From a virus (Duplodnaviria; Heunggongvirae; Uroviricota; Caudoviricetes), in IMG/VR virus record IMGVR_UViG_3300009164_000055: DNA of 64,000 bases; one strand, written 5' to 3'. The position numbers and the translations under genes are program-made. Of the stretch, positions 42,032 through 57,032 are shown piece after piece; positions within the stretch are counted from its first letter, which is position 1, and the number at the start of each line of letters is the position of its first letter. Under the pieces are notes generated by a model. It did not search any database, was not told the origin of the DNA, and saw nothing but the letters and a program-made list of their open reading frames with translations.

Positions 42032-43276
42032 ATGATTAATTTTAAATCTTTCATGACTGAAGCAACTGGTAGCACTGCACTTACAACACTTCCTGGTGTC
42101 CCAGAAAATCTTCACAACTTCCTTTTCCACCTTAGTGGTCCTTCTGATCCTACCAAGCTTCTCAACGAAGCTGCTGAGTATTATGATCAGATTGAAGAAG
42201 AGGAACGTAAAAGAGATGTTATGGATGTAAGTCAGCCAAAATTTAATCCTGATGAAGCTGCACATCCTTCAATGAATTTACCTAAAACACGTAATCTTAT
42301 TGATATGGGCCGTAGAGACATTCCAGCGGGAAACGTCCATAAGCGTATTGGTGAAGGCTTTCAATCAACATTCAAATCAATGGCAAATGAAACTCCAAAG
42401 GAATCAAGAGCAAAGCTTTCAGAATCACATAAGGTTCTAAGCGATTTTGCTAAGTCACGTGGTTTCAAGAGCAAGTTTCCCCTTTTGGGCGAAAACATGA
42501 AGACAGAAAAATCTTCTGGTGAGGGCGTTCTAACCAAAGGTCTAACACTAGCTCCACATACAACATCAGGTCTACATGGCTTTAACTCATGCGTTAAGGC
42601 ATCAACTGAATGTAAGAGGGGTTGCCTTGGTCTTACTGCTGGTGGCAATCGTCAGTACCCAGATGCTGCTCTATCAAGCAAGGTTATCAGAACACACTTC
42701 ATTGCAAAGCATCCTGAACATGCTGCACGTATCCTAGACAACGAAATCGGCAATCACGTCAAGAATGCCGCTAAGAAGGGCATGAAGCCTGGTGTGCGTC
42801 TAAACGTGACTTCAGATATCTCATGGGAAAAACATGCTCCACAACTATTTGATCGTCATCCAGATGCTCAATTCTATGACTATACCAAGCTCTCTAATCG
42901 TGTAGGCCATCCTGATCTACCAAAGAACTATCACCTTACCCTATCACACACAGGTACGGATCACGCTGAATCAAACGATAAGGCTGCTGTAGATACCTTG
43001 AAGAGAGGCCACGTGGTTGCGATGGTTTATCACCGTGGTAAGAAAATTCCACATCCAACACACGTTGAAGACGTTAAGACAGGCACTCGTTATCCAATCG
43101 TAAATGGCGATAAGGATGACAACACATTTGACCGTCATGAATCAATCGGCAGAACTGAAGGCAAGAAGGGACATGGAGTTGTGTCTGGTCTACAGCTTAA
43201 GGGCATTAAGAACGAAGAAGCTGGTAAATTTGCCAATCCAGTTGATAAAGATGGTATCATTCGTATCAATAAGTAA
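42032..43276 (+). CDS. hypothetical protein with CTS-like N-terminus (MINFKSFMTEA)
   Basis: 414 aa. Confidence 0.4.
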   Translation: MINFKSFMTEATGSTALTTLPGVPENLHNFLFHLSGPSDPTKLLNEAAEYYDQIEEEERKRDVMDVSQPKFNPDEAAHPSMNLPKTRNLIDMGRRDIPAGNVHKRIGEGFQSTFKSMANETPKESRAKLSESHKVLSDFAKSRGFKSKFPLLGENMKTEKSSGEGVLTKGLTLAPHTTSGLHGFNSCVKASTECKRGCLGLTAGGNRQYPDAALSSKVIRTHFIAKHPEHAARILDNEIGNHVKNAAKKGMKPGVRLNVTSDISWEKHAPQLFDRHPDAQFYDYTKLSNRVGHPDLPKNYHLTLSHTGTDHAESNDKAAVDTLKRGHVVAMVYHRGKKIPHPTHVEDVKTGTRYPIVNGDKDDNTFDRHESIGRTEGKKGHGVVSGLQLKGIKNEEAGKFANPVDKDGIIRINK

Positions 43277-43321
43277 GGTTCAATAATGATATATAATAAT
43301 AAAAGTAAAATATAAAAACTT

Positions 43322-43359
43322 ATGGGGGCGACATTTTTTAATGATGCCCCCATTTTTTT
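43322..43359 (+). terminator. rho-independent terminator ATGGGGGC...GCCCCCAT + T7
   Basis: 8-bp stem, 16-nt loop. Confidence 0.55.
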
Positions 43360-43361
43360 AC

Positions 43362-43390
43362 TTTACACGAGTTGCAACTGCCGTTATAAT
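43362..43390 (+). promoter_or_regulatory. promoter TTTACA-N17-TATAAT
   Basis: follows terminator, precedes 43438 gene. Confidence 0.45.
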
Positions 43391-43437
43391 CCGTTTGTCG
43401 GCATGAAATATTACTAACATATTACAGAAAGACTCAC

Positions 43438-43647
43438 ATGGAACAAGAAGACAAGAATAGAAACACATTCTATGCCATACCATGTAGAATGGATGACGAA
43501 GATGATGATGAATATATGTTCTTCCTTACATTTAATACAAGGAATGAAAAGGAAGCATTGAGATTAGCTAGTTGTGTTTGTGGTGAAGAGTCTAAACGTA
43601 GCTTAGTGGTTATTACAGATAATGGTGATTATTACGATTGCTATTGA
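43438..43647 (+). CDS. small acidic, Cys-containing hypothetical protein
   Basis: 69 aa. Confidence 0.35.
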   Translation: MEQEDKNRNTFYAIPCRMDDEDDDEYMFFLTFNTRNEKEALRLASCVCGEESKRSLVVITDNGDYYDCY

Positions 43648-43659
43648 CTGATACATCAG

Positions 43660-43854
43660 TCATTTTTCTTTTGGAAATATTTCAGGATATCTTTCATACA
43701 TACAGTAATATAATACAGTGCCTCTAAGCTTGCTATAAAATGTTGTCTGTTCTTTACCGTCCATCATACACTCATACTTAGATGGATGTACGTGAACAAT
43801 CCTTGCCTTTAAATCTCCATTATAAAAAATGTAAGCAATCATCCACCAAGTCAT
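43660..43854 (-). CDS. small hypothetical protein, last gene of minus-strand operon
   Basis: ATGA overlap with cyclase stop. Confidence 0.35.
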   Translation of the reverse strand: MTWWMIAYIFYNGDLKARIVHVHPSKYECMMDGKEQTTFYSKLRGTVLYYCMYERYPEIFPKEK

Positions 43855-45905
43855 TTACTGGTAGCACGGTAAACACCGTCCCAATTATTTGGTGCAGACT
43901 TTTGCTCATTCATGCGATCTATCATAGCGTTGTAATAGCCAGAAAGTTCACCTTTCCACACTGGTCCCATTTCATAAGCCATAGCTAAAGCTCTACCCCA
44001 TTCACCAGTACGATAATAATTTAAAAATTTATTATGAGCTTTTTCTGCTGCACTATCTTTCTTTTCAACCACAGTATAAATCTTTACTGGTTCTGTCTTG
44101 CCCTTAACAGCAATGAGGTCCAGTTCAATTATTTGGTATACATCCCTAACCAATTCGGCAGTTTCTGGCCCAATAATGAGTTTGACTCCATAAGGCTTGG
44201 ATTGACCTTCCAAACGAGAAGCCAGATTAACGCCATCCCCCAAGCAAGTATAGTCAAAACGCTGATCACTGCCCATATTACCAACAACCACAGTGGCAGT
44301 GTTAATACCAAGACCCATCCCAAAAGCGGGTACACCTTCTCTTGTAACTTCATCATTAAATTCCTTTAGTGAGTTTAGCATCTGGAATGCAGTCTTCACA
44401 GCATCTAGAGCATGTTGTTCATTGTTTAGTGGTGCATTCCAGAATGCCATCTGAGCGTCACCGATATACTTATCAAGCGTTCCTTTGTTCTCTAGGATTG
44501 CCTTTGTCATGGCAGTCATGTAGCGATTCATGATCTTAGTTAAACCTTGAACGTCTCTTCCATAGTGTTCTGAGATTGTTGTGAAGCCACGAACGTCTGT
44601 GAACATGATAGAGAGCTTTTGCTCTGTTCCACCTAGCTGTAGCAAGTCTGGTTGCTTTTGCAACTGTGCAACAAGGTCTGGTGACAGATATGTACCAAAC
44701 TGTTTCTTGATTTGTTGCTTCTGAAGGAATTCTGAGATATAATTGACGATGTTGACATGTAGGTATATAAGAATCATTGATCCAATAATGAAACTTGAAT
44801 CAAGTAGAATTTTATAATGTTCCATCGCATAGTATGGTGCATATACAGCCGCTGCTAATAATCCACCTACCCAAACGAATGAGAAGCGTACACGTGAAAG
44901 ACCAATCACCAAAATGCCAAGGGTTAGGAAACCAGCCCATTCCACTAAAGGAACCCATGACGGAATGGAAACGCTTGATCCGTCAAGAAGGGTCTGCAAT
45001 AATGAAGCTTGAATATACTGTGGAGACTTTGCTCCCACAGGAGTTGGAACAGGGTTCTGAATTCCTTCAGCAGTTACGCCAAGAATTACAAACTTATTTT
45101 GAAGAGATGGTAATGGGGAACCAACATCATACTCCTGAAATGCCTTGTTCCAATTTACAAACACTCGACTATAAGGGTCTGTTGAAATTGTATCGTACTG
45201 AGGGACACGAACAGCCTCAACACCTGTCTCATTTATCTTTGCTTGATATGATGTATCACCAGCCGCATTTCGAAGCATCTCAAGAGCAAAAGATGGGTAA
45301 TACTCATTATTTGACATTGCCAAAAGAGGAATACGACGAACAACGCCGTCAACTTCTGGAAGGGTTGATGTTACGCCAATCCCAGAAGCTTTATTTTGGA
45401 CCGTAGCTACGTTATCAAGAATGCATTTATATTGTGGTAGATAATCGGTGGCTTTGCCGTCACCAACAACTGCTACACCTGTACGCTTTGTGTTTGAGTT
45501 ATCTCTAGCGCACTTTTCACTAGCAACTTGAGATAAGACTACAGGATTAGATAAAAGTGATTGTTGTAGATCGGTGTCATGATTGAAGCGATCTGGCTCA
45601 GGATATAGTATGGTAGTACCGACTAAGCCAGCACCGCTGCTGTAAGCGTCATTAATAACCTTAGCATAAACATCTCTTGAGAATGGATACTGCCCATACT
45701 TTTCCAAAGTTTTTTCGGAAATATTGAGCAATACAACATCAGTACTAACAACTTGCTGCTCTGCTACCATCAGGTTATCGTAGAAATTCAAGCGGGTTGA
45801 TTCGATAAGGCGAGGATCAGCTACCTTCAATGTGATCAGAAGAGAAAAAGTAAGTAAAGCTAACCATGGGGACAATAATGTCTTTTTAATTTTGTTGACT
45901 AACAA
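43851..45905 (-). CDS. CHASE2 sensor domain - class III adenylate/guanylate cyclase
   Basis: N-terminal signal/TM + large periplasmic CHASE2-like region + TM cluster, then FTDVRGFTTISEH...GDGVNLASRLE class III cyclase catalytic motifs. Confidence 0.75.
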   Translation of the reverse strand: MLVNKIKKTLLSPWLALLTFSLLITLKVADPRLIESTRLNFYDNLMVAEQQVVSTDVVLLNISEKTLEKYGQYPFSRDVYAKVINDAYSSGAGLVGTTILYPEPDRFNHDTDLQQSLLSNPVVLSQVASEKCARDNSNTKRTGVAVVGDGKATDYLPQYKCILDNVATVQNKASGIGVTSTLPEVDGVVRRIPLLAMSNNEYYPSFALEMLRNAAGDTSYQAKINETGVEAVRVPQYDTISTDPYSRVFVNWNKAFQEYDVGSPLPSLQNKFVILGVTAEGIQNPVPTPVGAKSPQYIQASLLQTLLDGSSVSIPSWVPLVEWAGFLTLGILVIGLSRVRFSFVWVGGLLAAAVYAPYYAMEHYKILLDSSFIIGSMILIYLHVNIVNYISEFLQKQQIKKQFGTYLSPDLVAQLQKQPDLLQLGGTEQKLSIMFTDVRGFTTISEHYGRDVQGLTKIMNRYMTAMTKAILENKGTLDKYIGDAQMAFWNAPLNNEQHALDAVKTAFQMLNSLKEFNDEVTREGVPAFGMGLGINTATVVVGNMGSDQRFDYTCLGDGVNLASRLEGQSKPYGVKLIIGPETAELVRDVYQIIELDLIAVKGKTEPVKIYTVVEKKDSAAEKAHNKFLNYYRTGEWGRALAMAYEMGPVWKGELSGYYNAMIDRMNEQKSAPNNWDGVYRATSK

Positions 45906-46947
45906 TTATGCTACTCCCGCCATCGTTTAATTGAATAATATTTGTTTTTCCATTATCAGTGAATGATATATTTAGGTTTGATGTTTTTTCTGTAAGGATC
46001 GATGCCGTATTGTTTTGAATTCTAGTAAACTGGATAGTAACCTGTTCAACAAATGTGTATATCTTTGTTGTGCTATCAAGACCAAAATTTGTACCAATCA
46101 ATCGAATATTATCTTTAGTAACTTCTCCACCTTCAGAATATGTTAAATCATCCTCAAAAAAGTTTACATCAAGTCTATTGATACTAAGATCATTGTCGTT
46201 GATATCATTCTTTTCAAGTTCATCGTTCTTTAGGAAGTCAATATCTAGTTCTGATAGATCAAGAATATTGGCTCTTTTATCAACTATATCCTGTTGTTTA
46301 ACCACATCTGGTGGAGACACGATCAACATATTGTCGATCATGCTTAGGTCTAGGTTGAGAATGACAGGTTTTGTTGGTGGTGTATCAGCCGTCAGAACAA
46401 TAGTTGATTGAAAGGCTTTATCTAAAATAACAGTCCCTGCACTATTCGACACAGTAATCTGCCCAACATGACCGTTTTCTTCTGGTAGAAGAATAAACAG
46501 GCTCTTACCCATTTCATCTACGGTTGTTGTGAAATCTGTTCCTCTAACCGCTATGGTAGCAGTAGGAGTTTTAAGGTTGATACCTTTCTTACCCATGGAA
46601 CCAGTTACGAACCTAGCAGTACCTGAAGCAAATCGAAGATTCATCTTTCCTTTACTAGCATCGCCATCATAAACAAAATCATCGATCACAAGCTTTGATT
46701 GTTCTGTGAGTTTAACCTTAGTGTTGTCAACAAATGTTATTTCGATGCGACCATTACCAGTACGCACGTTATCCATTTTTTGCACAGGTAAGCGAGGCTG
46801 TGTAGGAATTTTTTGTGTTTTCCTAACAACCTCGCTTGGTCCTCTTAGCTCAGTAACACTGCCAATATTAGCAGTTGCCGCTATTGCATTGTGTGATGTT
46901 AATAATACCACCAGTAGCAGTAGTATTAAGTTTAATCGTATCCACAT
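45886..46947 (-). CDS. FecR-domain periplasmic protein
   Basis: signal peptide; FecR-like beta domain (GSVTELRGPSEV..., MGKSLFILLPEENGHVG); start overlaps curlin gene by ~80 nt so start codon uncertain. Confidence 0.5.
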   Translation of the reverse strand: MWIRLNLILLLLVVLLTSHNAIAATANIGSVTELRGPSEVVRKTQKIPTQPRLPVQKMDNVRTGNGRIEITFVDNTKVKLTEQSKLVIDDFVYDGDASKGKMNLRFASGTARFVTGSMGKKGINLKTPTATIAVRGTDFTTTVDEMGKSLFILLPEENGHVGQITVSNSAGTVILDKAFQSTIVLTADTPPTKPVILNLDLSMIDNMLIVSPPDVVKQQDIVDKRANILDLSELDIDFLKNDELEKNDINDNDLSINRLDVNFFEDDLTYSEGGEVTKDNIRLIGTNFGLDSTTKIYTFVEQVTIQFTRIQNNTASILTEKTSNLNISFTDNGKTNIIQLNDGGSSIIVSQQN

Positions 46948-47572
46948 TCAATGTACTCTTCTGATCGATATTAATAGTATTCAATGAACCTAGTACGTTC
47001 ATATCGATGTTCTTACCAGCATAACCAGTTTGAGTAGTTGTAATGGTATTTTGATCACCAGTTACGTTTATTGTATTGGTAACATCATCTGTATTGATAT
47101 TTGCCAGTAATGTATTATAGTCTCCTGAGATTACATAATTCAGAAGAGCATTTGTTGCTGATGAATAATCACCATGATTAAATGTTGTTTTATTGTTATC
47201 ACCAGTAATTGTCATATTTTGGGTTGTACCTGCAACAGAAGCACTACTGCCTGTGTTGAAGATATTTTCGTTAGAATTACCAGTAATATTAAGGTTATAA
47301 TTCACACCAGATGCATTTGTTATACGTCCAGTAAGAATGTTGTTTGAACCAGTTTGAGTAATAGTGATATCTTGTGAGTTTCCTTCAAGATTAAATCTAT
47401 TATTTTCAGAACCGATCTTATTATCTTGGCCTGTTTGCGTTACTGTTATCTTACTTGTTTCGCCTACTTGCTCAATATAGATTGCGTTTGGATTTGCAAT
47501 CGCTGTGGATGAAATCATGACCATCAAGAGTGATAACATCTTGATTTTCTTTAACATATCTTTTAACTCCAA
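46868..47572 (-). CDS. curlin-repeat (CsgA/CsgB-like) secreted protein
   Basis: signal peptide then imperfect repeats TVTQTGQDNKIGS / ITITQTGSNNILTG / MTITGDNNKTT / INVTGDQNTITTTQTGYAGKN resembling S-x5-Q-x-G-x-G-N curlin repeats. Confidence 0.5.
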   Translation of the reverse strand: MELKDMLKKIKMLSLLMVMISSTAIANPNAIYIEQVGETSKITVTQTGQDNKIGSENNRFNLEGNSQDITITQTGSNNILTGRITNASGVNYNLNITGNSNENIFNTGSSASVAGTTQNMTITGDNNKTTFNHGDYSSATNALLNYVISGDYNTLLANINTDDVTNTINVTGDQNTITTTQTGYAGKNIDMNVLGSLNTINIDQKSTLNVDTIKLNTTATGGIINITQCNSGNC

Positions 47573-48330
47573 TATCCCTTAATTCTGCCTTGTTTGATTA
47601 GTTCGACTACTGCCGCTTCAATTGTCATCTTAACCGCAATCGTGTTTGCTTCATTTTCGGTTATACCTACTTCTGTTTCAACAAGTTTGGTTCCTACATC
47701 AATAAATTTAAATAATGTAAAGTCTGTACCAGTTGAAAGGATTGTTTTTGAAACCTGTACGTTCATAATGACTTCGCCAGTGTTTGTTGAAACCGCCCTT
47801 AGTGCTACTGTTACTTGGTCTTTGCGATATTTTGTGCTTGAACCGATACCAAGATATCTGGCTCCAGCACCACCAGTAACAATATTGGTATCGTAACCAA
47901 TAATGCCACCTTGAATCATTATTCCTGCAAAGACTAAAGGTTCAAGCTTATTAGCGCCTTCACCTTGGTATTCTTCACGAGTTTGACGAACAATTTGACG
48001 TTCTTTAGTAAGATCGTCTATTCTTTGACGTTCGACAACTCTAAACCACTTTCCACGTCCAGCATTTTTCAATGCATCAATTAATAAACTTGTTCCGCCT
48101 TGAGTTACGGAAGTTGAAAATGTCGCTACACCATCTTTATCTTTTCTTTGACCTGTAAGATCAGGAAAGTCATACACAGCTACTACTGCTGGCATTTGTG
48201 GTGGTCTAATATCTAACAGTGGCTTATATGCCACACTATCAACAACAGGTAAATTTCTGTTGAAGTCATGTAGAGCAGGGGTTGCACAACCACCTAGCAA
48301 TAGTAATAATGCTAAACCTATGCTTTTCAT
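47563..48330 (-). CDS. csgG: curli production assembly/transport lipoprotein CsgG
   Basis: lipobox LLGGC; long blocks align with E. coli CsgG (VAVYDFPDLTGQ..., FSTSV...LLIDALK, MIQGGIIGYDTNIVTGGAGARYLGIGSSTKY...SKTILS...FKFID). Confidence 0.85.
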   Translation of the reverse strand: MKSIGLALLLLLGGCATPALHDFNRNLPVVDSVAYKPLLDIRPPQMPAVVAVYDFPDLTGQRKDKDGVATFSTSVTQGGTSLLIDALKNAGRGKWFRVVERQRIDDLTKERQIVRQTREEYQGEGANKLEPLVFAGIMIQGGIIGYDTNIVTGGAGARYLGIGSSTKYRKDQVTVALRAVSTNTGEVIMNVQVSKTILSTGTDFTLFKFIDVGTKLVETEVGITENEANTIAVKMTIEAAVVELIKQGRIKGYWS

Positions 48331-48854
48331 TAGAATTTAAATGACCCTGCTGTTGGAATGGTGATTGAAGTTGATGTACCATCTGGCTGTGTTATTGTCA
48401 GTGTTATACCATTTAAGTCTTTTTGAAATGCAACGGTATTTCCATCAAGCTCAAAGGTTCCTGAATCCTGTGCGTTTGGACCGAAAAGACTATCTGTCAG
48501 TTGTTTGGCTAGTTGAGAATATATACGAGACTGCAAATTGGTCATGAATTTGTTCATGATTGAATTTTGCTCAGCTTGAACTGCTGCTTTCAAATCTGAT
48601 TCAATTTTGTCTTGAATTGTTTTACGTCTGGTTGCTTCTTGATTTTCAATTGTTAACCAATGTGCAGAAGTGCCAACTCCACTAAATGAAGGGCTTTTGA
48701 ATTGCTGAACAATTTCTGTGGAATGTGCAGGACTACTTAGAAACAGTAGGCTTGCTAGTATCAGGCTCTTTCTTAGCAACTTCTTCTTCCTTTTTCTTTT
48801 TATTATTTTCAGAAGAAAGATCGAATTCAAGTTTGAAGATTTTGATGATTTCAA
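48330..48854 (-). CDS. csgF: CsgF-like curli assembly protein
   Basis: signal peptide then EIVQQFKSPSFSG (cf. CsgF TMTFQFRNPNFGG) and C-terminal ITLTITQPDGTSTSITIP (cf. LNVTDRKTGQTSTIQVSG). Confidence 0.55.
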   Translation of the reverse strand: MKSSKSSNLNSIFLLKIIKRKRKKKLLRKSLILASLLFLSSPAHSTEIVQQFKSPSFSGVGTSAHWLTIENQEATRRKTIQDKIESDLKAAVQAEQNSIMNKFMTNLQSRIYSQLAKQLTDSLFGPNAQDSGTFELDGNTVAFQKDLNGITLTITQPDGTSTSITIPTAGSFKF

Positions 48855-49114
48855 TTTTTAGGCTTATAATCACCGTGATCTTCCTTTATCTGTAGTACTA
48901 CATTCACCTTCTGGTTCAACCGAATGAGGTCATTGTCCAACATGCGAACACGATCAATCAGTGCGATTAAAATAACATTGGTTTCGCCAATCAACGGCAT
49001 TAATTTATCTGTAACAAACTTATAGATGAAGAATACGAAATATCCCATACCGACTGCGGCAACAATTGGGAATCCATATTGCTTCACAAATTGAGCAATT
49101 AGATCGGGTGACAT
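48851..49114 (-). CDS. small single-TM protein (paralog of next gene)
   Basis: shares D.I....GFPI.AA...G.F.....I...L.....I..L..RV....D.IR pattern with 49114..49401. Confidence 0.4.
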   Translation of the reverse strand: MSPDLIAQFVKQYGFPIVAAVGMGYFVFFIYKFVTDKLMPLIGETNVILIALIDRVRMLDNDLIRLNQKVNVVLQIKEDHGDYKPKN

Positions 49115-49401
49115 TAGTCTCTCCTAGCATCGTTCTTCCCGTCTGCTCGTGCAATTCTTTCAAGATCAGGCTTAAGACCTAATGCAGAACTTACTACGGC
49201 ATCAACACGGATAATATCATGGTTCATTGTTTTGACTCGATTATCGAGTCCCATAATAATACCCTGCATTCCTTTGATGGCTTTGAGGACGCTTTCTAGG
49301 ATGTAGTTAATAACAAAGTACACGAAGACACCACCCAACAACGCTGCTGCGATGGGGAACCCTACGTCACCAATCAGTTTGAATATAACATCGTATCCCA
49401 T
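49114..49401 (-). CDS. small single-TM protein, first gene of minus-strand operon
   Basis: ORF-track TTG start (49554) trimmed to ATG giving paralog-length product. Confidence 0.35.
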   Translation of the reverse strand: MGYDVIFKLIGDVGFPIAAALLGGVFVYFVINYILESVLKAIKGMQGIIMGLDNRVKTMNHDIIRVDAVVSSALGLKPDLERIARADGKNDARRD

Positions 49402-49673
49402 GCTTATATTTATGCAAATGGCATCTTTGTATGTAGCATACGAAAAAAAAAAAGTTGACAATCCATTTTTTTCTGCTATTTGCGTCTCAACTTGTATAAA
49501 TAAATGTAAGAAACTATTTACTAAGAAAGACTTAAAGTGCAACTCACCTATCAACCCATTATGAAAGATATGAAACCAGCCAGTTCATTCGAACATGGCC
49601 GCTTTGCGTCTGTCAATAATGGTGCGTGGACAGATGAGATGTAACTGAAGTACGACATAAGTATAACTTGTCA

Positions 49674-49756: not shown

Positions 49757-49832
49757 GCCGCTATAGCTCAGTTGGTAGAGCGTCTGCCTTGTAAGCAGAA
49801 TGTCTGGGGTTCGATTCCTCATGGCGGCACCA
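49757..49832 (+). tRNA. tRNA-Thr (anticodon TGT)
   Basis: cloverleaf by eye; GCTCAGTTGGTAGAGC D-arm, GGTTCGATTCC T-arm, CCA encoded. Confidence 0.7.
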
Positions 49833-49839
49833 GAATTTC

Positions 49840-49915
49840 GGGGACTTAGCTCAGTTGGGAGAGCGATAGCTTTGCAAGCTATAGGTCAAGGGTTCGATCC
49901 CCTTAGTCTCCACCA
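49840..49915 (+). tRNA. tRNA-Ala (TGC)
   Basis: acceptor GGGGACT/AGTCTCC incl. G3-U70, anticodon loop TTTGCAA. Confidence 0.7.
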
Positions 49916-49985
49916 AGTTAGGGGTTGACGTTTAATAAGCACGGATGTAATGTAATTGAATGTTGGCTTCGACAAAATAGATTAT

Positions 49986-50064
49986 AGCGGGATAGAGGAG
50001 TATGGCCGTCCTCGCCAGTTTCATAAGCTGGAAATCGTCGGTTCAAATCCGGCTCCCGCAACCA
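49986..50064 (+). tRNA. initiator tRNA-fMet (CAT)
   Basis: 3' half ATCGTCGGTTCAAATCCGGCTCCCGCAACCA nearly identical to E. coli tRNA-fMet; 1-72 mismatch (A·A). Confidence 0.65.
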
Positions 50065-50103
50065 ATCTATGCTCTTTGACATTGTTAGAAACGTAATATT
50101 TTA

Positions 50104-50180
50104 CGGGGATTAGCGCAGTCCGGTAGCGCACCTGCTTTGGGAGCAGGGGGTCGTAGGTTCGAATCCTACATTCCCGACCA
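50104..50180 (+). tRNA. tRNA-Pro (TGG)
   Basis: anticodon loop TTTGGGA, T-arm GTAGGTTCGAATCCTAC. Confidence 0.7.
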
Positions 50181-50310
50181 TTAAGTTTTCTTGTTTTTCC
50201 TTTAAAAAACAAGTGGTGGATCGCAGAATTAGATGCTAATTCGGCCCCAAATGTGGTGTATGCCAAAGACCATTGAAAGAGATGGGCAGCGAATGGGAGC
50301 TTCGCAGTAT

Positions 50311-50386
50311 GGTGGCTGTAGCTCAGAGGCAGAGCGTTGGGTTGTGAACCCAAATGTCGGGATTTCGAAACTCCTCAGTCACCCCA
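50311..50386 (+). tRNA. tRNA-His (GTG) with encoded G-1
   Basis: G-1 opposite C73, anticodon loop TTGTGAA; T-arm GGGATTTCGAAACTCCT imperfect. Confidence 0.55.
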
Positions 50387-50387
50387 T

Positions 50388-50465
50388 GTCGGTGTAGCTT
50401 AGCCCGGTCTAAAGCAACGGTCTCCAAAACCGTGATCGTGAGTTCGAATCTCACCACCTTCGCCA
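50388..50465 (+). tRNA. tRNA-Trp (CCA)
   Basis: anticodon arm ACGGTCTCCAAAACCGT identical to E. coli tRNA-Trp; acceptor stem shows two mismatches as read. Confidence 0.5.
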
Positions 50466-50487
50466 TTTTTTAAACAATAGGTGATTT

Positions 50488-50925
50488 ATGATTGAAGAAG
50501 CAAAACAGGCAATCTTGGCATCAAGTCAAAGTTCTTCTGTTTACATCGGTGCTGACAGCATCCGTTACAAAAAAGACGGTAAGTGGTATGCTAAGTATTC
50601 GACTGTGATTGTTCTTCACATAGATTCTAAGCGGGGCTGCAAACTATTCCATAACAGCGTTGATTTGCCAGACTATGGCAACTTAAAACAACGCTTGCTA
50701 ACAGAAGTTGGATATGCTATTGAAGCAGCAATCGAGATTATTGATGTGGTTGGTAAACGTCATTTGGAAGTTCATATTGACGTTAATCCAAATCCAAAGC
50801 ATAAATCTTCTGTTGCAATCAAGGAAGCCTTGGGTTATGTTAAGGGTTCACTTGGTATAGATGCTATTCCAAAGCCAAATGGATGGGCAGCTACTCATGC
50901 TGCTGACCATATGGCAAGACACTAA
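50488..50925 (+). CDS. RNase H-like fold protein (YkuK/DUF458-like) embedded in tRNA array
   Basis: VYIGADS...KYSTVIVLH pattern reminiscent of DUF458; 145 aa. Confidence 0.35.
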   Translation: MIEEAKQAILASSQSSSVYIGADSIRYKKDGKWYAKYSTVIVLHIDSKRGCKLFHNSVDLPDYGNLKQRLLTEVGYAIEAAIEIIDVVGKRHLEVHIDVNPNPKHKSSVAIKEALGYVKGSLGIDAIPKPNGWAATHAADHMARH

Positions 50926-50930
50926 ATAAT

Positions 50931-51005
50931 GCCTGATTAGCTCAGCGGTAGAGCAAATCCTTTACACGGATAAGGTCGGCGGTTCAATCCCGTCATCAGG
51001 TACCA
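50931..51005 (+). tRNA. tRNA-Val (TAC)
   Basis: close to E. coli tRNA-Val1 3' half (GGTCGGCGGTTCAATCCCGTCATCA). Confidence 0.7.
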
Positions 51006-51013
51006 AAGTTCAT

Positions 51014-51088
51014 TCCCTGATAGCTCAATGGTAGAGCTTTCGGCTGTTAACCGGACGGTTGTAGGTTCGAGTCCTACTCAGGGAGCCA
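51014..51088 (+). tRNA. tRNA-Asn (GTT)
   Basis: anticodon loop CTGTTAA; acceptor TCCCTGA/TCAGGGA. Confidence 0.7.
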
Positions 51089-51444
51089 GAGTTTAGTGAG
51101 TGTTATAGTTAGACGGCACTGTGTGTAAACTAATCGATTGTTGTAACACAGTAAAAGATGACGGTGCAAGTACGCAACATAGATAAACCATCTGCTCTCT
51201 ATCAATTTATAACGTACCCTAAGAACGCAAGTTCAATAGCAGAGGCGCTGATAAATTCTGCATAATGCTCCATTGTTGGGTTGGAGGCTCACTAATTCAA
51301 GTTTACTAGGCGGGTGCAGTACACCGTAAGTCCTCAGAAGTTGGGGAATGGCAAAGTGCTCAACGGCTATACAACTACTATTGTATAGCAACTGTAGTAG
51401 CAGTGTTGATGTGGTGCAAGTCCATACGTTCCCCTCATTTTAAT

Positions 51445-51520
51445 GGATCGTTAGCTCAATCGGGAGAGCACCGCACTGTCCATGCGGAGGTAAGGGGATC
51501 GAAACCCCTACGATTCGCCA
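51445..51520 (+). tRNA. tRNA-Asp (GTC), non-canonical T-loop ATCGAAA
   Basis: anticodon loop CTGTCCA; T-arm AGGGG-ATCGAAA-CCCCT (A at position 54). Confidence 0.55.
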
Positions 51521-51525
51521 TCAAT

Positions 51526-51600
51526 GGCCCTGTCGTCTAGTGGCTAGGACGCTAGGTTTTCAACCTAGAGAAGCGGGATCGAAACCCGTCAGGGCTACCA
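51526..51600 (+). tRNA. tRNA-Glu (TTC), 3-bp D-stem, T-loop ATCGAAA
   Basis: anticodon loop TTTTCAA. Confidence 0.55.
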
Positions 51601-51622
51601 TTTTTTAAGGTTGACAAACGAT

Positions 51623-51793
51623 ATGGATAACGATAATAAAGAAGCCGTATTGCTTAGTTTAAAGGAACGTAAAACTGCATGTTGGGCAATGGCTAAAGTG
51701 TTTCTCTTGAATGAAGATGCACACGGCGTTCACGACATGGGAGTTGAAATTCAAGCTTTAGACAGAGCAATCAAAGAGATTGAAAGTCTTTAA
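51623..51793 (+). CDS. doubtful small ORF (56 aa) without RBS, overlapping a TTGACA-N17-TAATAA promoter-like site
   Basis: ORF track 51611..51793 trimmed to ATG; may be non-coding. Confidence 0.2.
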   Translation: MDNDNKEAVLLSLKERKTACWAMAKVFLLNEDAHGVHDMGVEIQALDRAIKEIESL

Positions 51794-51800
51794 AGTTTAG

Positions 51801-51883
51801 GGTGACTAAAGTCGATAGTTTCGGCAATCGGTCTGTAAAACCGATCTTTCGGGGAGTGGAGCGTAACCACAGTCACCCACCAA
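51801..51883 (+). pseudogene. tRNA-Tyr-like degenerate element (acceptor GGTGACT/AGTCACC, anticodon arm with CTGTAAA loop, no T-arm)
   Basis: anticodon loop identical to E. coli tRNA-Tyr; 3' tail ...AGTCACCCACCA; lacks recognisable T-loop. Confidence 0.3.
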
Positions 51884-51910
51884 GTTTTTTGAGATAGTGA
51901 AAAATAGTTG

Positions 51911-51939
51911 TTGATATAAAGACAACGAATCACTATATT
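51911..51939 (+). promoter_or_regulatory. early-type promoter TTGATA-N17(…CGAATCAC)-TATATT in front of the large ORF-free region
   Basis: shares CGAATCAC spacer element with P1-P6 family. Confidence 0.4.
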
Positions 51940-51945
51940 GAGTTC

Positions 51946-53090
51946 AACAAAGAGATAAATGGCGGTGTAGCGTCAATAGGGTAAGGTCGGGTAACTGATC
52001 CCAAAGCAAGTTCTCCTACAGAACTGCGCCAGTGATGGTCCATCTATGCAAGCCTGAACAAACCCGAAAGGGTCCGTCAGTAGAATGGCGGTAGGCATTA
52101 AGTGCTGGTCGAAGGTCCGAAAGGATAGGTTACAGAGCCACATCGGTGAGTAGCTAAATGGGGTGGTACCCATACCAAGTCAAACCAACAGTACGATTGC
52201 TGAATGTTAACAGGTAGTTATTGAGTCTGACCCTGCAAGGAAAGGCAAGATAGCAGTCACAAAGTTGAAGGGATGACCGGAGACTTGAAGGATCGTTGAG
52301 TAGTTCGCAAGACGAAAGACAGGAGGTGTGCAGTATTTTGTATCCCAAAAGGATATGAAGCAGCAGTAGCAGCACATCTTGGTAGGTTTCTTACTTTGCA
52401 CAAACTTTAGGTGTCTGATCGCAAATCAAACAAAAAAAAGCAAAGTCTGCTACGGTACTATGTGAAAGGTGCTTAATACCACACTCGAAAGGGAATGTGG
52501 TTCATGGATACTCGCAAGGTTGAAGTGATTGTTCGGATTGAAAACGTAAGAGCTTAGCGGCTCCTAACTGCTCGTAAGGTAGACGGAAGATTGAGGGATG
52601 AATAGCATAGTATGACAGGTCAAACGCCAGACCTTAAAAAAGGCAGCACTGAGAGATACTAGATGACTGTAAAAAGCTCTAGTGGATAACGAGTTAACAA
52701 TCCTCGCAAGGGACTTGGTACGGCTCAAAGGCTCTCATATGAAGCAGTAATCTCATGCTTCTCAAAGACTTTTTAGATGAACACATTCTATAAGACTTAC
52801 GGCCTTCGGGTACGCTTGAGTGTGTTCTTCTAAAAAGTTTTGATGAACACACCAAACAGGACGCTGGCTCGTTGAAGTATTTGGGGGAAGTAGCTGCCCT
52901 TGGGTATGGAGAGATGAGTGTGTTCTTCTAAACTTTTTAAATCTACTCTGCTGGGGGTAGCAGTGTATGGACGCATACACTATGTGAGGATAGGGCCATC
53001 TTACCCTCACTGACATAACCCTAGCAATGGCTTAGGACAGGAAGCACCTGACTCCGAAATTCGCTCATGAGCAGAGTAGATTTAAATAGT
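51946..53090 (+). ncRNA. candidate large structured non-coding RNA (~1.15 kb, GNRA-tetraloop-rich, GC-enriched; GOLLD/ROOL-class or novel)
   Basis: no + strand ORF >=60 aa across 1.3 kb in an otherwise tightly packed genome; many C(n)GAAAG(n) / CGCAAG hairpins; 17-bp long-range inverted repeat 52936-52952 / 53069-53085; flanked by tRNAs. Confidence 0.45.
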
Positions 53091-53094
53091 TTAT

Positions 53095-53169
53095 GCCAGT
53101 ATAGCTCAGCGGTAGAGTACGGGACTCATATTCCCTTGGTCGCTAGTTCGATCCTAGCTACTGGTACCA
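53095..53169 (+). tRNA. tRNA with CAT anticodon, tRNA-Ile2 (lysidine) type more likely than elongator Met
   Basis: ACTCATATTCCCTTGGTCGCTAGTTCGATCC resembles E. coli tRNA-Ile2 (TTGGTC variable loop). Confidence 0.55.
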
Positions 53170-53220
53170 ATTTGTGGATTATTTTACAACTATATACAAT
53201 GTCTTTATATAAAGGAAATT

Positions 53221-53784
53221 ATGATGAATAATAACAATTTGCCACATCATTTGGGTGGACACGAAAACATGACACATGTTGATGATGGTGCTCTTCAATT
53301 TTTGATTGAACGCTATGATGCTAAGTCATTTCTTGATGTTGGCTGTGGTCCTGGTGGAATGGTTGACCTATCACTTGAAAAAGGATTGATTGCTCATGGT
53401 GTTGATGGAGATTTTACAGTAAATCATAAAAATCCAAATAACATTACCATTCATGATTATGTTACTGGTCCTGTAAAGCTCAATAGAAATTATGATATTG
53501 GTTGGTCTTGTGAATTTCTAGAGCATGTTGAAGAAGTTTATATGGCTAATTATATGGATACCTTCAAGTATTGTAAAGTTATTGCAGTCACACATGCTTT
53601 TCCAAATCAACAGGGCCATCATCATGTTAACTTGAAAAGTCCAGAATATTGGATTGAAAAGTTTTCTTTTTATGGTTTTTCACAGGATATTGAAGCAACT
53701 CAGTTGATCCGTGAAAAGTCAACAATGGGCGATGAATACATTCGTTTGAGCGGTCTTGTATTTTTGAATTCAAATTTTAGTTAA
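53221..53784 (+). CDS. class I SAM-dependent methyltransferase
   Basis: motif I FLDVGCGPGGM, motif II-like ITIHDYV. Confidence 0.55.
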   Translation: MMNNNNLPHHLGGHENMTHVDDGALQFLIERYDAKSFLDVGCGPGGMVDLSLEKGLIAHGVDGDFTVNHKNPNNITIHDYVTGPVKLNRNYDIGWSCEFLEHVEEVYMANYMDTFKYCKVIAVTHAFPNQQGHHHVNLKSPEYWIEKFSFYGFSQDIEATQLIREKSTMGDEYIRLSGLVFLNSNFS

Positions 53785-53789
53785 ATATT

Positions 53790-53864
53790 GCACCATTAGC
53801 TCAGTAGTAGAGCATTCGACTGATAATCGAAAGGTGACAGGGGCGGTACCTGTATGGTGTACCA
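53790..53864 (+). tRNA. tRNA-Ile (GAT), unusual T-loop GGCGGTA
   Basis: anticodon arm TTCGA-CTGATAA-TCGAA; T-arm ACAGG-GGCGGTA-CCTGT. Confidence 0.5.
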
Positions 53865-53908
53865 AAAATTACTAATACTTCTAGTAAATGGAAGTTTCTA
53901 TAATTTGT

Positions 53909-53985
53909 GGCCGTGTAGTCCAACTGGCAGAGACACTAGTTTTAGGTACTAGGTGTTGGGAGTTCGAATCTCTCCACGGCTACCA
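53909..53985 (+). tRNA. class-I tRNA with anticodon TAG (Leu-decoding anticodon but short 5-nt variable loop)
   Basis: anticodon arm CTAGT-TTTAGGT-ACTAG; variable loop GTGTT; canonical T-arm. Confidence 0.45.
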
Positions 53986-53990
53986 TTTAT

Positions 53991-54067
53991 ATCCTTGTAG
54001 CTCAACTGGAGAGAGCACTTGATTACGAATCAAGAGGTTACAGGTTCGAATCCTGTCAAGGATGCCA
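53991..54067 (+). tRNA. tRNA-Arg (ACG)
   Basis: anticodon loop TTACGAA, perfect acceptor ATCCTTG/CAAGGAT. Confidence 0.7.
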
Positions 54068-54108
54068 ATCCTTATAAATAGTAAAAACTATTTCGTTGAG
54101 GACAATAC

Positions 54109-54813
54109 ATGAAACCTTTTAAATCATTTATCGAAGAATCATTGATTAAACAACTTACGTTGAAGTATCATGGTAAGCTTAATCCAAAGATTTGGAAGAA
54201 AGATCAACTGAAGGATGGTATCGCTGAACTTTTGATTAAGAAAGCATATGAGTTTGCCGTCTATTCTGGTGTGAGCAAAGGTCGTATTAAAGATATTGTC
54301 ATCACTGGCGGTAATGTCAATTACAACTATACCAAGTTCTCTGATATCGATGTTCATTTAATGTGTGATGTTGACGGCTTGAATAGCGATAAGCTTTATG
54401 AAAAGAAAGTTTCATGGACAGCTAGTCACAAGAATTTGAAGGTTGCTGGATATCCATTAGAGTTTTATGCTGCTAATAACAAAGATCATTTTCCAAAGGG
54501 ACAGGGTGTATATTCTATCCTTGAAAATAAATGGTTGATCATACCAAAACATCTTGATCATTTAGATATTCTGCATGATCCAAAAGTGATTGACAAGATC
54601 AATTACTATGTTAAGTATATCAGAACACTTCTAAAAAGTGGAACAGAAACAGAAATCAAGGCTTTTAAAGATAAGCTACATACAATGCGTGGTGCTGGAT
54701 TGCATCATGGTGGTGAATTTTCGGTTGAGAATGTTCTTTATAAAGACCTTCGTAATCGTGGTCTGCTTGATAAGTTGAATGCAAAAATTCACCATACAGG
54801 TGAAGAAGTTTAA
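54109..54813 (+). CDS. nucleotidyltransferase-fold protein with CTS-like N-terminus (MKPFKSFIEES)
   Basis: GGNVNYNYTKFSDIDVHL fits hG[GS]x9-13Dh[DE]h pol-beta NTase motif. Confidence 0.45.
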   Translation: MKPFKSFIEESLIKQLTLKYHGKLNPKIWKKDQLKDGIAELLIKKAYEFAVYSGVSKGRIKDIVITGGNVNYNYTKFSDIDVHLMCDVDGLNSDKLYEKKVSWTASHKNLKVAGYPLEFYAANNKDHFPKGQGVYSILENKWLIIPKHLDHLDILHDPKVIDKINYYVKYIRTLLKSGTETEIKAFKDKLHTMRGAGLHHGGEFSVENVLYKDLRNRGLLDKLNAKIHHTGEEV

Positions 54814-54818
54814 AGTTT

Positions 54819-54890
54819 GCGGGTAAGCATAAGGTATGCAGTCGGTCTTCCAAACCGTACATAGAGTGAGTTCGATTCTCATTATCCGCT
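54819..54890 (+). pseudogene. tRNA-Gly(TCC)-like element with truncated D-loop (possible tRNA pseudogene)
   Basis: acceptor GCGGGTA/TATCCGC, anticodon loop CTTCCAA, T-arm GTGAG-TTCGATT-CTCAT, but 5-nt D-loop and no CCA. Confidence 0.3.
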
Positions 54891-54955
54891 CATAGAGTTC
54901 CAGACCACCAACACCTTTTTTAGGAAAATCTCATTCATTAGAAACTAAGAAAAAA

Positions 54956-55099
54956 ATGAGTGAATCTAAAAAAGGAAAATTTACTGGTGAAAAAAATTCA
55001 CAATATGGTACAATGTGGATAACCAATGGAAATATAAATAAAAAAGTAAAATGTGATGATATCATCCCTGATGGATGGTATAAAGGAAGATTGAAATAA
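54956..55099 (+). CDS. homing-endonuclease C-terminal DNA-binding module remnant (47 aa)
   Basis: TGEKNSQYGTMWITNG...IPDGWYKGR resembles repeated G.K.S.E...G..W..NG / P.GW..GR modules of T4 Seg/Tev-type endonucleases; no catalytic domain. Confidence 0.35.
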   Translation: MSESKKGKFTGEKNSQYGTMWITNGNINKKVKCDDIIPDGWYKGRLK

Positions 55100-55192
55100 T
55101 AGTTTGATGTGAATACAAAGCGTTCGTCGCTGTCGCAATATCACACACATTCGTACCAATACGTGCGGTACAGATTTATTATGAGGGAACAT

Positions 55193-56443
55193 ATGTTAAA
55201 CAATGCTTATATTTTATATCTAGATGAACCAAAATCATTAAAGTATCTACAAGACTGCATCGATTCATGTGAGCAGTTTCCTAATATCAATCCCATTCCA
55301 GTAGCTGGTCCACTTCGTGCTTCATACAAAGAATTGTGTGAAGAATTTGGTATCGGCATCATTCCTTATTACGTTAATCAGATGGCCACCAATGCACAGA
55401 CGTTGAACAATACGTTCTCCTGTAATGGTGGTCATTATCGTATTTGGAAGAAGATTGTCGAAAGCGGTGAAGCTGGTGTTGTGTTTGAGCACGATGTAGT
55501 TGTCAAGCAAGACTTTACAACTCTTGAGCCAGTTGATGGTGAAATTCTCTGGCTTGGTCCACGTATTCATAATGTAGATGACTACAACTATCCTGATGGA
55601 TGGGAAAGCAGATACGTAGAAGTTGATCGTTGGGAAGGCACCCATGCCTATGCCATTACACCAAACACAGCACAGATGCTGCTTGACTGTATTGATGAGT
55701 ATGGCATCAATGATTCGATTGATGGTCAGTTAGGTATGAGAAATATCTTTGACATGCGTATGAGGGCGGTTGATCCACCTCCTGCTGTAGCTGTTGTTTC
55801 TGGTGATCGTCAATCAACGATTGAACTTAGCGGAAATGCTGCAACATGGAATGCGTATAGTACTGATGGATTTCGTGCTGGTCTGAAGGCTGGTATGGAG
55901 CCACCTGTTCGTCAGCTATATTTCACTAACAGTAGCTTCATGAAACACACTGGTGTTCTTGATACTATTCTTAAGGAAAATGGCTTCTACGAAAACAAAC
56001 CATTAAAGGTTCTTGTTATCGGTGGTGAAGAAGGTATGTCAACTTTATGGTTGAGCAATAAGTTGCTTCGTCATGACGACAGTCAGTTATTCTGTGCTGG
56101 TGGCTTTGAAAAAAAGAATTTGGAAATATTCAACTTCAACACATATTTCAGTAAGTACTATTACAAGTTGAACGCAATCAATTGTGATGATCCCACTGAT
56201 CTTTTGATTGCAAGCTGTGGTGATCCTGATATTGTCTTAGATGTTGTGTATATTGGCGGTAATACAAACACAAAAAATACAGTATTTAATGGTACTGCTT
56301 CTTTCTCAATGTTAAGGGATGGTGGTCTGATTATTTTTGATAATTATGATCAGCCAATCGTTAAGGCGGGTGTTGATATCATTGATAATGCAACCTGTAT
56401 GGAATCGCTTTACAAAGGCGATGTTGCAGTGTACAAATACTGA
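55193..56443 (+). CDS. putative glycosyltransferase (GT25-like N-terminus) with uncharacterised C-terminal domain
   Basis: start chosen at ATG with SD GAGGG; ORF track offers 55109 GTG. Confidence 0.3.
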   Translation: MLNNAYILYLDEPKSLKYLQDCIDSCEQFPNINPIPVAGPLRASYKELCEEFGIGIIPYYVNQMATNAQTLNNTFSCNGGHYRIWKKIVESGEAGVVFEHDVVVKQDFTTLEPVDGEILWLGPRIHNVDDYNYPDGWESRYVEVDRWEGTHAYAITPNTAQMLLDCIDEYGINDSIDGQLGMRNIFDMRMRAVDPPPAVAVVSGDRQSTIELSGNAATWNAYSTDGFRAGLKAGMEPPVRQLYFTNSSFMKHTGVLDTILKENGFYENKPLKVLVIGGEEGMSTLWLSNKLLRHDDSQLFCAGGFEKKNLEIFNFNTYFSKYYYKLNAINCDDPTDLLIASCGDPDIVLDVVYIGGNTNTKNTVFNGTASFSMLRDGGLIIFDNYDQPIVKAGVDIIDNATCMESLYKGDVAVYKY

Positions 56444-56447
56444 GTGT

Positions 56448-56521
56448 TGCCCTTTCCTCTAATGGTAAGAGAGCGGACTTTGAATCCGTCAATTGGGGTT
56501 CGAGTCCCTGAAGGGCATCCA
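56448..56521 (+). tRNA. tRNA-Gln (TTG)
   Basis: anticodon loop CTTTGAA; 3-bp D-stem; CCA encoded. Confidence 0.6.
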
Positions 56522-56549
56522 AATTTTATTTTATAATGGAGAAAAAACT

Positions 56550-56786
56550 ATGAGTGACAATATTTCTGTAAATGAACTACGTCAGTACATTGAACGTATT
56601 GAGCGTCTTGAAGAAGAACTTGATGGTATCAAGGGTGATCGTAAGGACGTATATGCTGAAGTTAAGGCTGTAGGCTTTGACGTTAAGGCAGTACGCAAGA
56701 TTGTTCGTATTCGCAAGATGGACCCAACACAGCGCCAGATTGAAGAAGCGGTAGAAGATACATATCGTACTGCATTAGGTCTATAA
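56550..56786 (+). CDS. hypothetical coiled-coil protein
   Basis: ORF track 56493 trimmed (5' part overlaps tRNA-Gln); SD GGAG. Confidence 0.4.
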   Translation: MSDNISVNELRQYIERIERLEEELDGIKGDRKDVYAEVKAVGFDVKAVRKIVRIRKMDPTQRQIEEAVEDTYRTALGL

Positions 56787-56801
56787 TAAAAGGATATATT
56801 T

Positions 56802-57032
56802 ATGGCAAAAACACTTGTAAATTTTCTTGTTGAAGAAGCTGATCTTCGTCGTTTTGATAACATAGCAGAAATTTTAGGAAGAACTCGCACATCAATTTTG
56901 AGAGAATACATAAATGACTTTTCTGCTGAACAGTCTATTATGATAGCACAGAAAAAGCTTAAACTACAGGAATTAGATCGTATTCTTGCAGAATATAAAT
57001 CGGTACTCACGCCTTCACAAGAACAAGACTAG
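56802..57032 (+). CDS. ribbon-helix-helix (CopG/Arc-like) DNA-binding protein
   Basis: KTLVNFLVEEADLRRFDNIAEILGRTRTSILREYIN fits beta-strand + two helices RHH pattern. Confidence 0.45.
   Translation: MAKTLVNFLVEEADLRRFDNIAEILGRTRTSILREYINDFSAEQSIMIAQKKLKLQELDRILAEYKSVLTPSQEQD

Follow-up and report, generated by a model that had tools for sequence, protein, structure and literature searches.

What are a receptor-type nucleotidyl cyclase and a FecR-domain protein doing at the end of a block of curli genes in a phage genome? We addressed this question for a stretch of 64,000 nucleotides, hereafter the window, from IMG/VR virus record IMGVR_UViG_3300009164_000055 (Caudoviricetes). A first-pass annotation, made from the letters alone, had described the two genes as a CHASE2 receptor cyclase and its secreted partner, co-operonic with curli genes, and had regarded this architecture as undescribed for T4-like phages. 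Both of the open reading frames (ORFs) that it reported are present on the minus strand (Table 1). As judged by homology, the window carries a diverged copy of an already known phage type VIII secretion system (T8SS; curli) module. Our reading, to which we assign a probability of roughly 0.6, is that the FecR-domain protein and the CHASE2 cyclase of this diverged module sense a cue on the envelope side and convert it into cyclic AMP (cAMP).

The relationship to known phages was found at the protein level. A nucleotide search with the 6-kb block against 50,697 phage records returned no match, and a protein-level search was needed: tblastn with the cyclase against phage records identified Methylophilales phage Melnitz, at 37% identity over 96% of the query, and also Pelagibacter phage HTVC008M. 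In both genomes (MZ577097 and GenBank KC465899, respectively) the match is annotated as an adenylate/guanylate cyclase beside curli genes. A curli cluster was reported in pelagimyophages in 2020 (PMC7029224), and the CsgGF of Melnitz was discussed in 2022 in a paper that leaves the cyclase unmentioned (PMC9004378). In the same year a study in mSystems described a pelagiphage T8SS module that includes FecR and an adenylate cyclase and that occurs both in Myoviridae and in Podoviridae of the HTVC023P type; phylogenies in that study point to an alphaproteobacterial origin, and the module was detected at all 65 GOV2.0 stations, with metatranscriptome evidence (PMC9599517). Because of the module in HTVC008M and Melnitz and its description in that study, the claim that the architecture is undescribed in T4-like phages is wrong. 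PHROG families exist for every protein of the module except the curlin-like one.

We next consider the cyclase, whose reading frame begins with TTG. Its translation matches CHASE2 (PF05226) over residues 27-335 with 128 bits (cut-off, 26.3) and Guanylate_cyc (PF00211) over residues 429-611 with 70.4 bits (gathering cut-off, 21.9). Both domains proposed for the 684-aa product, the CHASE2 sensor and the class III catalytic domain, are thus matched far above the Pfam cut-offs, and the two motifs quoted for it, FTDVRGFTTISE and GDGVNLASRLE, both occur in the translation. A hydropathy scan placed a first transmembrane segment at residues 10-28 and a cluster at 318-384 (segments 318-336 and 366-384, with a weaker one between them). 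From the first segment and the C-terminal cluster we predict the usual CHASE2 topology, with CHASE2 outside the cytoplasm, in the periplasm, and the cyclase domain inside. The protein ends in a 70-aa C-terminal extension and, at a median identity of 64%, is among the better conserved products of the module.

Among solved structures, the best matches were CyaB and Cya2-derived cyclase domains. The top one was 6fht (E=2e-34), an engineered phytochrome-cyclase fusion, followed by the best natural enzyme, the catalytic domain of Pseudomonas aeruginosa CyaB (3R5G, E=6e-34). Alignment to 3R5G located the metal-binding aspartates at D437 and D483, the substrate-specifying pair at K479 (in LDKYIGD) and T553 (in FDYTCLGD), the same pair as in CyaB, and the transition-state residues at N560 and R564 (in GVNLASR). 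All six are present, including the metal and substrate residues whose loss the first-pass annotation had named as evidence against its proposal. By the criterion applied here, Lys with Thr (class IIIb) or with Asp at the second position indicates adenine, and guanylate cyclases have Glu with Cys, Gly or Ser; in the same alignment, wild-type Cya2 (2W01) has Glu at the position equivalent to K479. Because of the Lys479/Thr553 pair, the enzyme is predicted to be an ATP-specific class IIIb adenylate cyclase and not a guanylate cyclase. Of the original suggestion of "cAMP or cGMP", these residues retain the first product and discard the second. Both aspartates and the lysine are invariant in 81 of 81 viral homologues, and the threonine, like the full DDKTNR signature, is found in 78; two of the other three sequences are cut by contig ends (L079, L081), and Melnitz and HTVC008M are likewise counted outside the 78.

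The same residues bear on the idea that the cyclase serves a Pycsar-like defense or counter-defense, either making cCMP or cUMP or interfering with host immunity based on cyclic nucleotide monophosphates (cNMPs). The catalytic domain does match the PADLOC PycC models (best E=1.5e-23), but only over the shared class III fold (residues 429-567), its Lys/Thr pair is of the purine (ATP) type, and no effector gene is adjacent. On these three grounds we rejected membership in Pycsar; a CHASE2 sensor with a FecR partner is, moreover, the architecture of bacterial receptor cyclases, and we consider the defense reading very improbable.

The FecR-domain protein encoded just before the cyclase was identified with PF04773 at 56.8 bits (cut-off, 24) and has 5918 database homologues. 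Its N terminus is hydrophobic, signal-peptide-like and cleavable-looking, in agreement with the earlier description of a secreted FecR-domain protein preceding the cyclase. The signal peptide is followed by the FecR beta-domain (residues ~28-125), a D/N-rich linker of low model confidence, and a C-terminal beta-domain (residues 272-353; the stretch ~272-353 corresponds to window 45886-46152, minus strand). The FecR domain begins ~30 residues past the signal-peptide-like N terminus, and the protein lacks a cytoplasmic anti-sigma domain and a membrane anchor. Profile scans of the module proteins detected neither a FecI sigma factor nor a TonB-dependent receptor (FecA). Since the anti-sigma domain and both partners are missing, identity as an iron-regulating anti-sigma factor is ruled out, and the published "iron regulator" reading of phage FecR is a transfer of name, not a supported function.

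In Foldseek searches with the AlphaFold2 (AF2) model of the FecR-domain protein, the N-terminal beta-domain matched the FecR-family periplasmic domains PupR (6ovk) and 4m0h. The top match of the whole model (E=6e-3, target TM 0.72) was a "cell surface anchoring domain", 5ix9; we take this to be the N-terminal domain with which an ice-binding RTX adhesin plugs an outer-membrane pore. This likeness is structural only: in the match of the whole model, the two share 31% identity over 61 columns, and a search of the PDB with the FecR alignment profile gave nothing at E<=10.

Upstream of these two genes lie the secretion genes proper. CsgG was matched by PF03783 with 177 bits and by the NCBIfam CsgG model at 4e-52, under the equivalog cut-off, and is 47-50% identical to the CsgG proteins of Melnitz and HTVC008M; CsgF was matched by PF10614 with 68 bits. 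These matches show a predicted outer-membrane pore with its cap, to which the last two conserved genes add a putative sensor unit. The product of the gene between those for CsgG and FecR carries a signal peptide and is homologous to the "curlin" genes of Melnitz and HTVC008M. Curated models match it weakly (NCBIfam CsgA, E=9e-4; Pfam Curlin_rpt, E=0.21; both under the curated cut-offs), and an hhalign comparison of its profile with E. coli CsgA gave 77% probability and E=2e-5. The proposal that the cyclase is co-operonic with curli genes is supported, and the identities of CsgG and CsgF are confirmed. No member of the CsgE, CsgC or CsgD families was found among the eight ORFs of the module.

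Two small genes precede csgF in 49 of 49 viral loci. Both products are predicted single-pass membrane proteins and paralogs within phrog_18771. For the first, the mechanical ORF reaches back to a TTG at 49554; its homologues are ~95 aa long, and it is also called as 95 aa on related contigs. This protein has no Pfam domain at E<=1 apart from chance-level matches. The 87-aa paralog was modeled by AF2 (predicted local distance difference test score [pLDDT], 79) with helices at residues 3-13 and 15-81, the latter a single long helix. The small upstream proteins were labeled "HK" (histidine kinase) in the pelagiphage study (PMC9599517). We could not reproduce this label: at 87 and 95 aa, the proteins have no kinase domain in Pfam, NCBIfam or PHROGs, and no histidine is conserved between the two paralogs.

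For these small proteins another function has been considered. In the hypothesis published for the Melnitz CsgGF (PMC9004378), extended to the present genes, the module would be a lysis or lysis-timing device in which CsgG(F) forms a gated outer-membrane pore, the small proteins act as holin and antiholin, and the FecR/CHASE2 cyclase senses periplasmic events such as superinfection. The single-pass helices, a weak N-terminal holin match of the 87-aa protein (E=1.3e-3) and the restriction of the pair to phages, where it always accompanies the module and from which the bacterial copy described below differs in lacking it, fit such a device. The holin match is marginal, however, covering ~19 residues; a conserved secreted curlin-like substrate would be superfluous to a pure pore; and there is no lysin or spanin in or beside the module, the sole Rz-like match in the window lying 30 kb away. 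We regard a lysis device as improbable.

The gene order along the minus strand is 95-aa small protein, 87-aa paralog, CsgF, CsgG, curlin-like protein, FecR, cyclase and a 64-aa ORF, and successive genes overlap by 1, 4, 1, 10, 80, 20 and 4 nt. Because of these overlaps, the block is a single operon, and translational coupling across its junctions is likely. The FecR gene thus begins within the curlin-like gene, as the first-pass annotation had noticed (the overlap is 80 nt, and shrinks to 44 nt if the start in the Joint Genome Institute [JGI] gene call is used), and 20 nt at its end are shared with the start of the cyclase gene. These two are the distal conserved genes of a minus-strand block inside an otherwise plus-strand region. 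When IMG/VR and genome loci were screened, L008 alone yielded a homologue of the 64-aa ORF; the ORF is likewise called as a gene on L151, a contig that is nearly identical and belongs to this same phage.

Table 1. Features of the minus-strand curli/cyclase block, in window coordinates
Feature	Position	Strand	Evidence and remarks
Small membrane protein 1 (95 aa)	49114..49401	-	phrog_18771, E=6.5e-29; paralog of the 48851..49114 gene
Small membrane protein 2 (87 aa)	48851..49114	-	phrog_18771, E=5e-31
CsgF-like protein	48330..48854	-	PF10614, E=9e-19; phrog_35372; start uncertain, JGI call is 149 aa
CsgG-like outer-membrane lipoprotein pore (predicted)	47563..48330	-	PF03783, E=3e-52; lipobox LLGGC
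Curlin-like secreted N/T/G-rich repeat protein	46868..47572	-	ITxTQTGxxN motifs; weak CsgA/Curlin_rpt matches
Secreted FecR-domain protein (353 aa)	45886..46947	-	PF04773, E=3e-15; phrog_37870, E=2e-63
Receptor-type class IIIb adenylate cyclase (684 aa; predicted)	43851..45905	-	Pfam; phrog_35576 over full length, 746 bits
CHASE2 sensor domain (cyclase residues 27-335)	44901..45827	-	PF05226, E=5e-37; flanking transmembrane segments
Class III cyclase catalytic domain (residues 429-611)	44073..44621	-	PF00211, E=2e-19; alignment to CyaB 3R5G
64-aa ORF, 4-nt overlap with the cyclase stop	43660..43854	-	No family match; not a conserved module member
Hairpin where the module and the plus-strand backbone genes converge	43645..43662	.	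Terminator-like on the plus strand

Opposite the start of the operon lies the promoter of a plus-strand tRNA array, a perfect match to the sigma-70 type. For the operon itself, no convincing sigma-70-type promoter was found upstream on the minus strand; the CATAAATA motif was considered and set aside, as it lies too near the first ATG to serve that ORF. The array comprises ~20 tRNA genes (49757-63750), starts ~200 nt from the curli/cyclase operon, and has embedded in it a full-length GOLLD RNA (RF02032, 203 bits, E=7e-56) at 52323-52759 on the plus strand.

The orientation of the block opposite to the surrounding genes, together with the occurrence of relatives on contigs binned as bacterial metagenome-assembled genomes (MAGs), could suggest bacterial contamination, a chimeric assembly or a functionless passenger in decay. 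Two further JGI samples, however, yielded contigs that match the window at 99.985% (42886-49472) and at 100% (45290-47115) and span the junction of the module with the backbone genes. Since the block recurs at 99.98-100% identity in independent assemblies, it is not the artefact that the first-pass annotation had allowed for. The GC content of the block (0.385) is close to that of the window (0.391), phage genes flank the module in dozens of contigs, and throughout the clade no gene is disrupted and the catalytic residues are preserved. We rejected artefact and decay on these grounds, and hold either to be extremely unlikely.

To place the window among its relatives, we used a pattern scan of IMG/VR, which found at least 544 contigs encoding relatives, a count that is a lower bound. 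The best 80 show 52-67% full-length identity, and the contigs that carry them reach 360 kb. The complete seven-gene set is present in all 49 loci with enough upstream sequence. Among mapped loci the module takes a compact form, as in the window (n=38), or includes an extra curlin-like gene (n=35). Backbone genes are common to the window and many related contigs, but their positions relative to the module differ. On contigs L003-L082, the small-protein pair is of two types, ~90% and ~66% identical to that of the window; the core from CsgF to FecR likewise falls into two types, and all four combinations with the small-pair types occur. The window cyclase is ~64% identical to all relatives, whichever type they carry. 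By these patterns the module is a recombination mosaic in which cyclase, T8SS core and small pair assort independently, and the window represents a separate lineage of a large, recombining clade that is 37% identical to the cultured marine copies. The habitat of this clade is probably freshwater, to go by the lake-type names of MAG relatives.

Phage-type modules with the phage-specific small proteins were also seen on contigs L083, L085, L087-L090, L097, L099, L102 and L126, which are binned as Bacteroidetes, Rhodobacteraceae, Legionellales, Flavobacteriaceae, Pirellulales or Pelagibacter MAGs; these are probably mis-binned phage contigs. In some related phages, Tet_JBP dioxygenase and DruA-family genes lie directly upstream of the module (L159-L161, 1997-5681).

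The pairing of FecR with CHASE2 extends well beyond phages. A FecR-domain ORF was found within 1.5 kb of the CHASE2 protein in 29 of 57 non-curli genome loci, often abutting it on the same strand, in taxa such as Hyphococcus, Parvularculaceae, Sulfurimonas and Desulfobulbales. In Campylobacterota, the genes of CHASE2 cyclases are grouped with genes for FecR-domain, phosphodiesterase and TPR proteins (PMC9239204). In Sinorhizobium meliloti, the FecR-domain protein SMc02177, presumably encoded next to cyaD1 judging from its locus tag, is a target of the cAMP regulator Clr, which is activated via the CHASE2 cyclases CyaD1, CyaD2 and CyaK (PMC5498481), and CHASE2 cyclases of this organism sense an external protein signal through the outer-membrane barrel NsrA, leading to cAMP and Clr (PMC13001267). 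The view that FecR and CHASE2 are commonly paired in bacteria is thus upheld by both the genome loci and the literature, and gene neighborhoods mark FecR plus CHASE2 cyclase as a recurrent bacterial unit in its own right.

One chromosomal locus combines this pair with curli genes. In the Caulobacteraceae MAG contig CANGCO010000005.1 (L086), positions 2749-10058 encode CsgF, CsgG, two curlin-like proteins, FecR and a cyclase of the CHASE2 type; ahead of these genes lies one for an Rv0805/Icc-like member of the phosphodiesterase family. The flanks of the module, with genes for methylmalonyl-CoA mutase, acyl-CoA dehydrogenase and TetR, identify a genuine bacterial chromosome. We considered this locus as a bacterial donor of the module and decided otherwise: in a neighbor-joining tree its cyclase falls within the clade of phage sequences, phage contigs are its closest kin, and the GC content of its module (0.52) lies between that of the phage (0.39) and that of its own flanks (0.57-0.58). 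A phage-to-bacterium transfer is the probable source, and we do not count the locus against the published alphaproteobacterial origin. It is a counter-example, however, to the published view that bacterial T8SS operons do not include FecR and the cyclase (PMC9599517).

These observations bear on whether the cyclase has anything to do with the curli genes. It could act independently of them as a host-takeover or auxiliary regulator whose cAMP switches on host CRP-dependent transport and catabolism, its adjacency reflecting joint inheritance. Consistent with this, many bacteria that have no curli genes carry the FecR and CHASE2 pair as a self-sufficient unit, cyclase and T8SS core assort independently of each other in related phages, and some published phage modules lack a cyclase (PMC9599517). 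On the other hand, the seven-gene order holds in 49 of 49 loci with overlapping junctions that imply cotranslation, the linkage has been kept across ~60% sequence divergence between the marine clade and that of the window, and no cAMP receptor was identified in the 64-kb window. We consider an independent cyclase unlikely, though it deserves serious weight.

Taken together, the data favor a diverged phage T8SS module with a FecR/CHASE2 cyclase that would sense an envelope-side cue. In the infected cell, the FecR-domain protein would serve as a periplasmic co-sensor that informs CHASE2 of the state of some component of the outer membrane or envelope, the candidate being the CsgG/CsgF/curlin apparatus encoded alongside or a substance that passes through it. 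CHASE2 would then switch the dimeric cyclase, and cytoplasmic cAMP would report the envelope-side or extracellular cue, with a host CRP-family regulator or a phage factor as candidate targets. FecR-FecA cell-surface signaling and the S. meliloti chain from NsrA through a CHASE2 cyclase and cAMP to Clr provide the analogies for this scheme.

Several points weigh against it. The literature contains no experiment on any phage copy, and the signal, the contacts of FecR with CHASE2 and with CsgG, and the cAMP receptor are all steps that we infer. No CRP-like or cNMP-binding protein (phmmer with an E. coli CRP query) and no Icc-type phosphodiesterase was found in the window, which is part of the genome. 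The cultured relatives infect SAR11 and OM43, in which the repertoire of regulators is very small, and a host cAMP receptor is not guaranteed. The AF2 model of the FecR-domain protein is partly confident, with a mean pLDDT of 62 and confident N-terminal and C-terminal beta-domains. The independent assortment of module parts weakens the case for tight physical coupling, and the T8SS part can work without the cyclase, as its absence from some phage modules indicates.

A bolder version of the scheme would have FecR and the CHASE2 cyclase physically wired to the phage CsgG/CsgF pore as a trans-envelope sensor whose cAMP sets the timing or mode of a strictly lytic, T4-like infection. Its cues might be superinfection, the load of curlin being exported or the touch of sibling cells in an aggregate, and its output might run through the two phage-specific single-pass membrane proteins. 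We find this version doubtful, indeed quite unlikely. A side lead for such wiring is the possible resemblance of the C-terminal FecR beta-domain to the presumed pore-plugging domain 5ix9, a match of the model as a whole.

The phage backbone was examined for its own affinities. A Dda/UvrD-type helicase (window 62137-63651, plus strand) is 51% identical to the helicases of Brevundimonas siphophages, its closest relatives, and on this account we doubted the "T4-like" label; the primase restored it, as its closest relatives, at 45% identity, are the primases of T4-like cyanomyophages. The label given by the first-pass annotation stands on this homology, and the differing affinities of primase and helicase suggest replication genes of mixed ancestry. 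The only Metallophos protein in the window (60210-60962, plus strand) was considered as an Icc-type phosphodiesterase and rejected, its best solved-structure matches being LpxH, the UDP-2,3-diacylglucosamine hydrolase of lipid A synthesis (E=2e-5). Together with glycosyltransferase ORFs at 69-887, 889-1614, 22851-23849, 55109-56443 and 59197-60111, it suggests envelope or lipopolysaccharide remodeling.

If the proposed mechanism is true, abundant lytic aquatic phages would bring a receptor, a second-messenger pathway and a secretion system into cells that lack them, an unusual case of a virus sensing the surroundings of its host. The value of the window is incremental, since the existence, architecture and global distribution of the module have already been published. 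What is new here is a diverged clade copy, 37% identical to those of cultured phages, the mosaic nature of the module, the failure to reproduce the "histidine kinase" label, and a bacterial chromosomal copy that nests among phage copies. The window also adds residue-level grounds for predicting an active, ATP-specific cyclase, corrects two published labels ("histidine kinase" and "iron regulator FecR") and indicates that the proper functional comparison is with the FecR-CHASE2 pair of bacteria.

Among known systems, the modules of Melnitz and HTVC008M are the most directly comparable. All seven module genes are homologous and in the same order as in the window, on a backbone that is likewise T4-like (Kyanoviridae-type), with identities from 37% (cyclase) to 50% (CsgG). 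The window has the compact form, whereas both cultured phages carry a second curlin-like gene between FecR and the cyclase, and its module, unlike theirs, is inverted relative to the backbone and adjoins the tRNA array. The second substrate position is Thr in the window, Asp in Melnitz (signature DDKDSR) and Ser in HTVC008M (DDKSNR). The bacterial pairs of S. meliloti and Campylobacterota share the essential arrangement of a secreted or periplasmic FecR-domain protein encoded beside a CHASE2 class III cyclase; they differ in having no curli genes, the Caulobacteraceae locus being the sole exception, and in FecR-domain proteins that are often much larger (~800 aa, compared with 353 aa in the window), and the phage version lacks the phosphodiesterase and TPR partners of the Campylobacterota cluster. 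P. aeruginosa CyaB (3R5G), a class IIIb enzyme, has a catalytic set identical to that of the window cyclase, including Lys and Thr, but has no FecR partner, and its membrane sensor is presumably MASE2 in place of CHASE2.

The two E. coli systems after which the genes are named are more distant. Canonical curli (csgBAC-csgDEFG) has in common with the phage module a CsgG, a CsgF and a secreted protein with Q/N/G repeats; the phage module lacks CsgE, CsgC and CsgD, and its curlin-like protein fails the CsgA and Curlin_rpt thresholds. With FecA-FecR-FecI, the phage protein shares the fold of the FecR periplasmic domain and the idea of relaying an outer-membrane event across the periplasm; it has a signal peptide in place of the anti-sigma domain and anchor of E. 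coli FecR, and the output of the phage module would be cAMP and not the release of a sigma factor.

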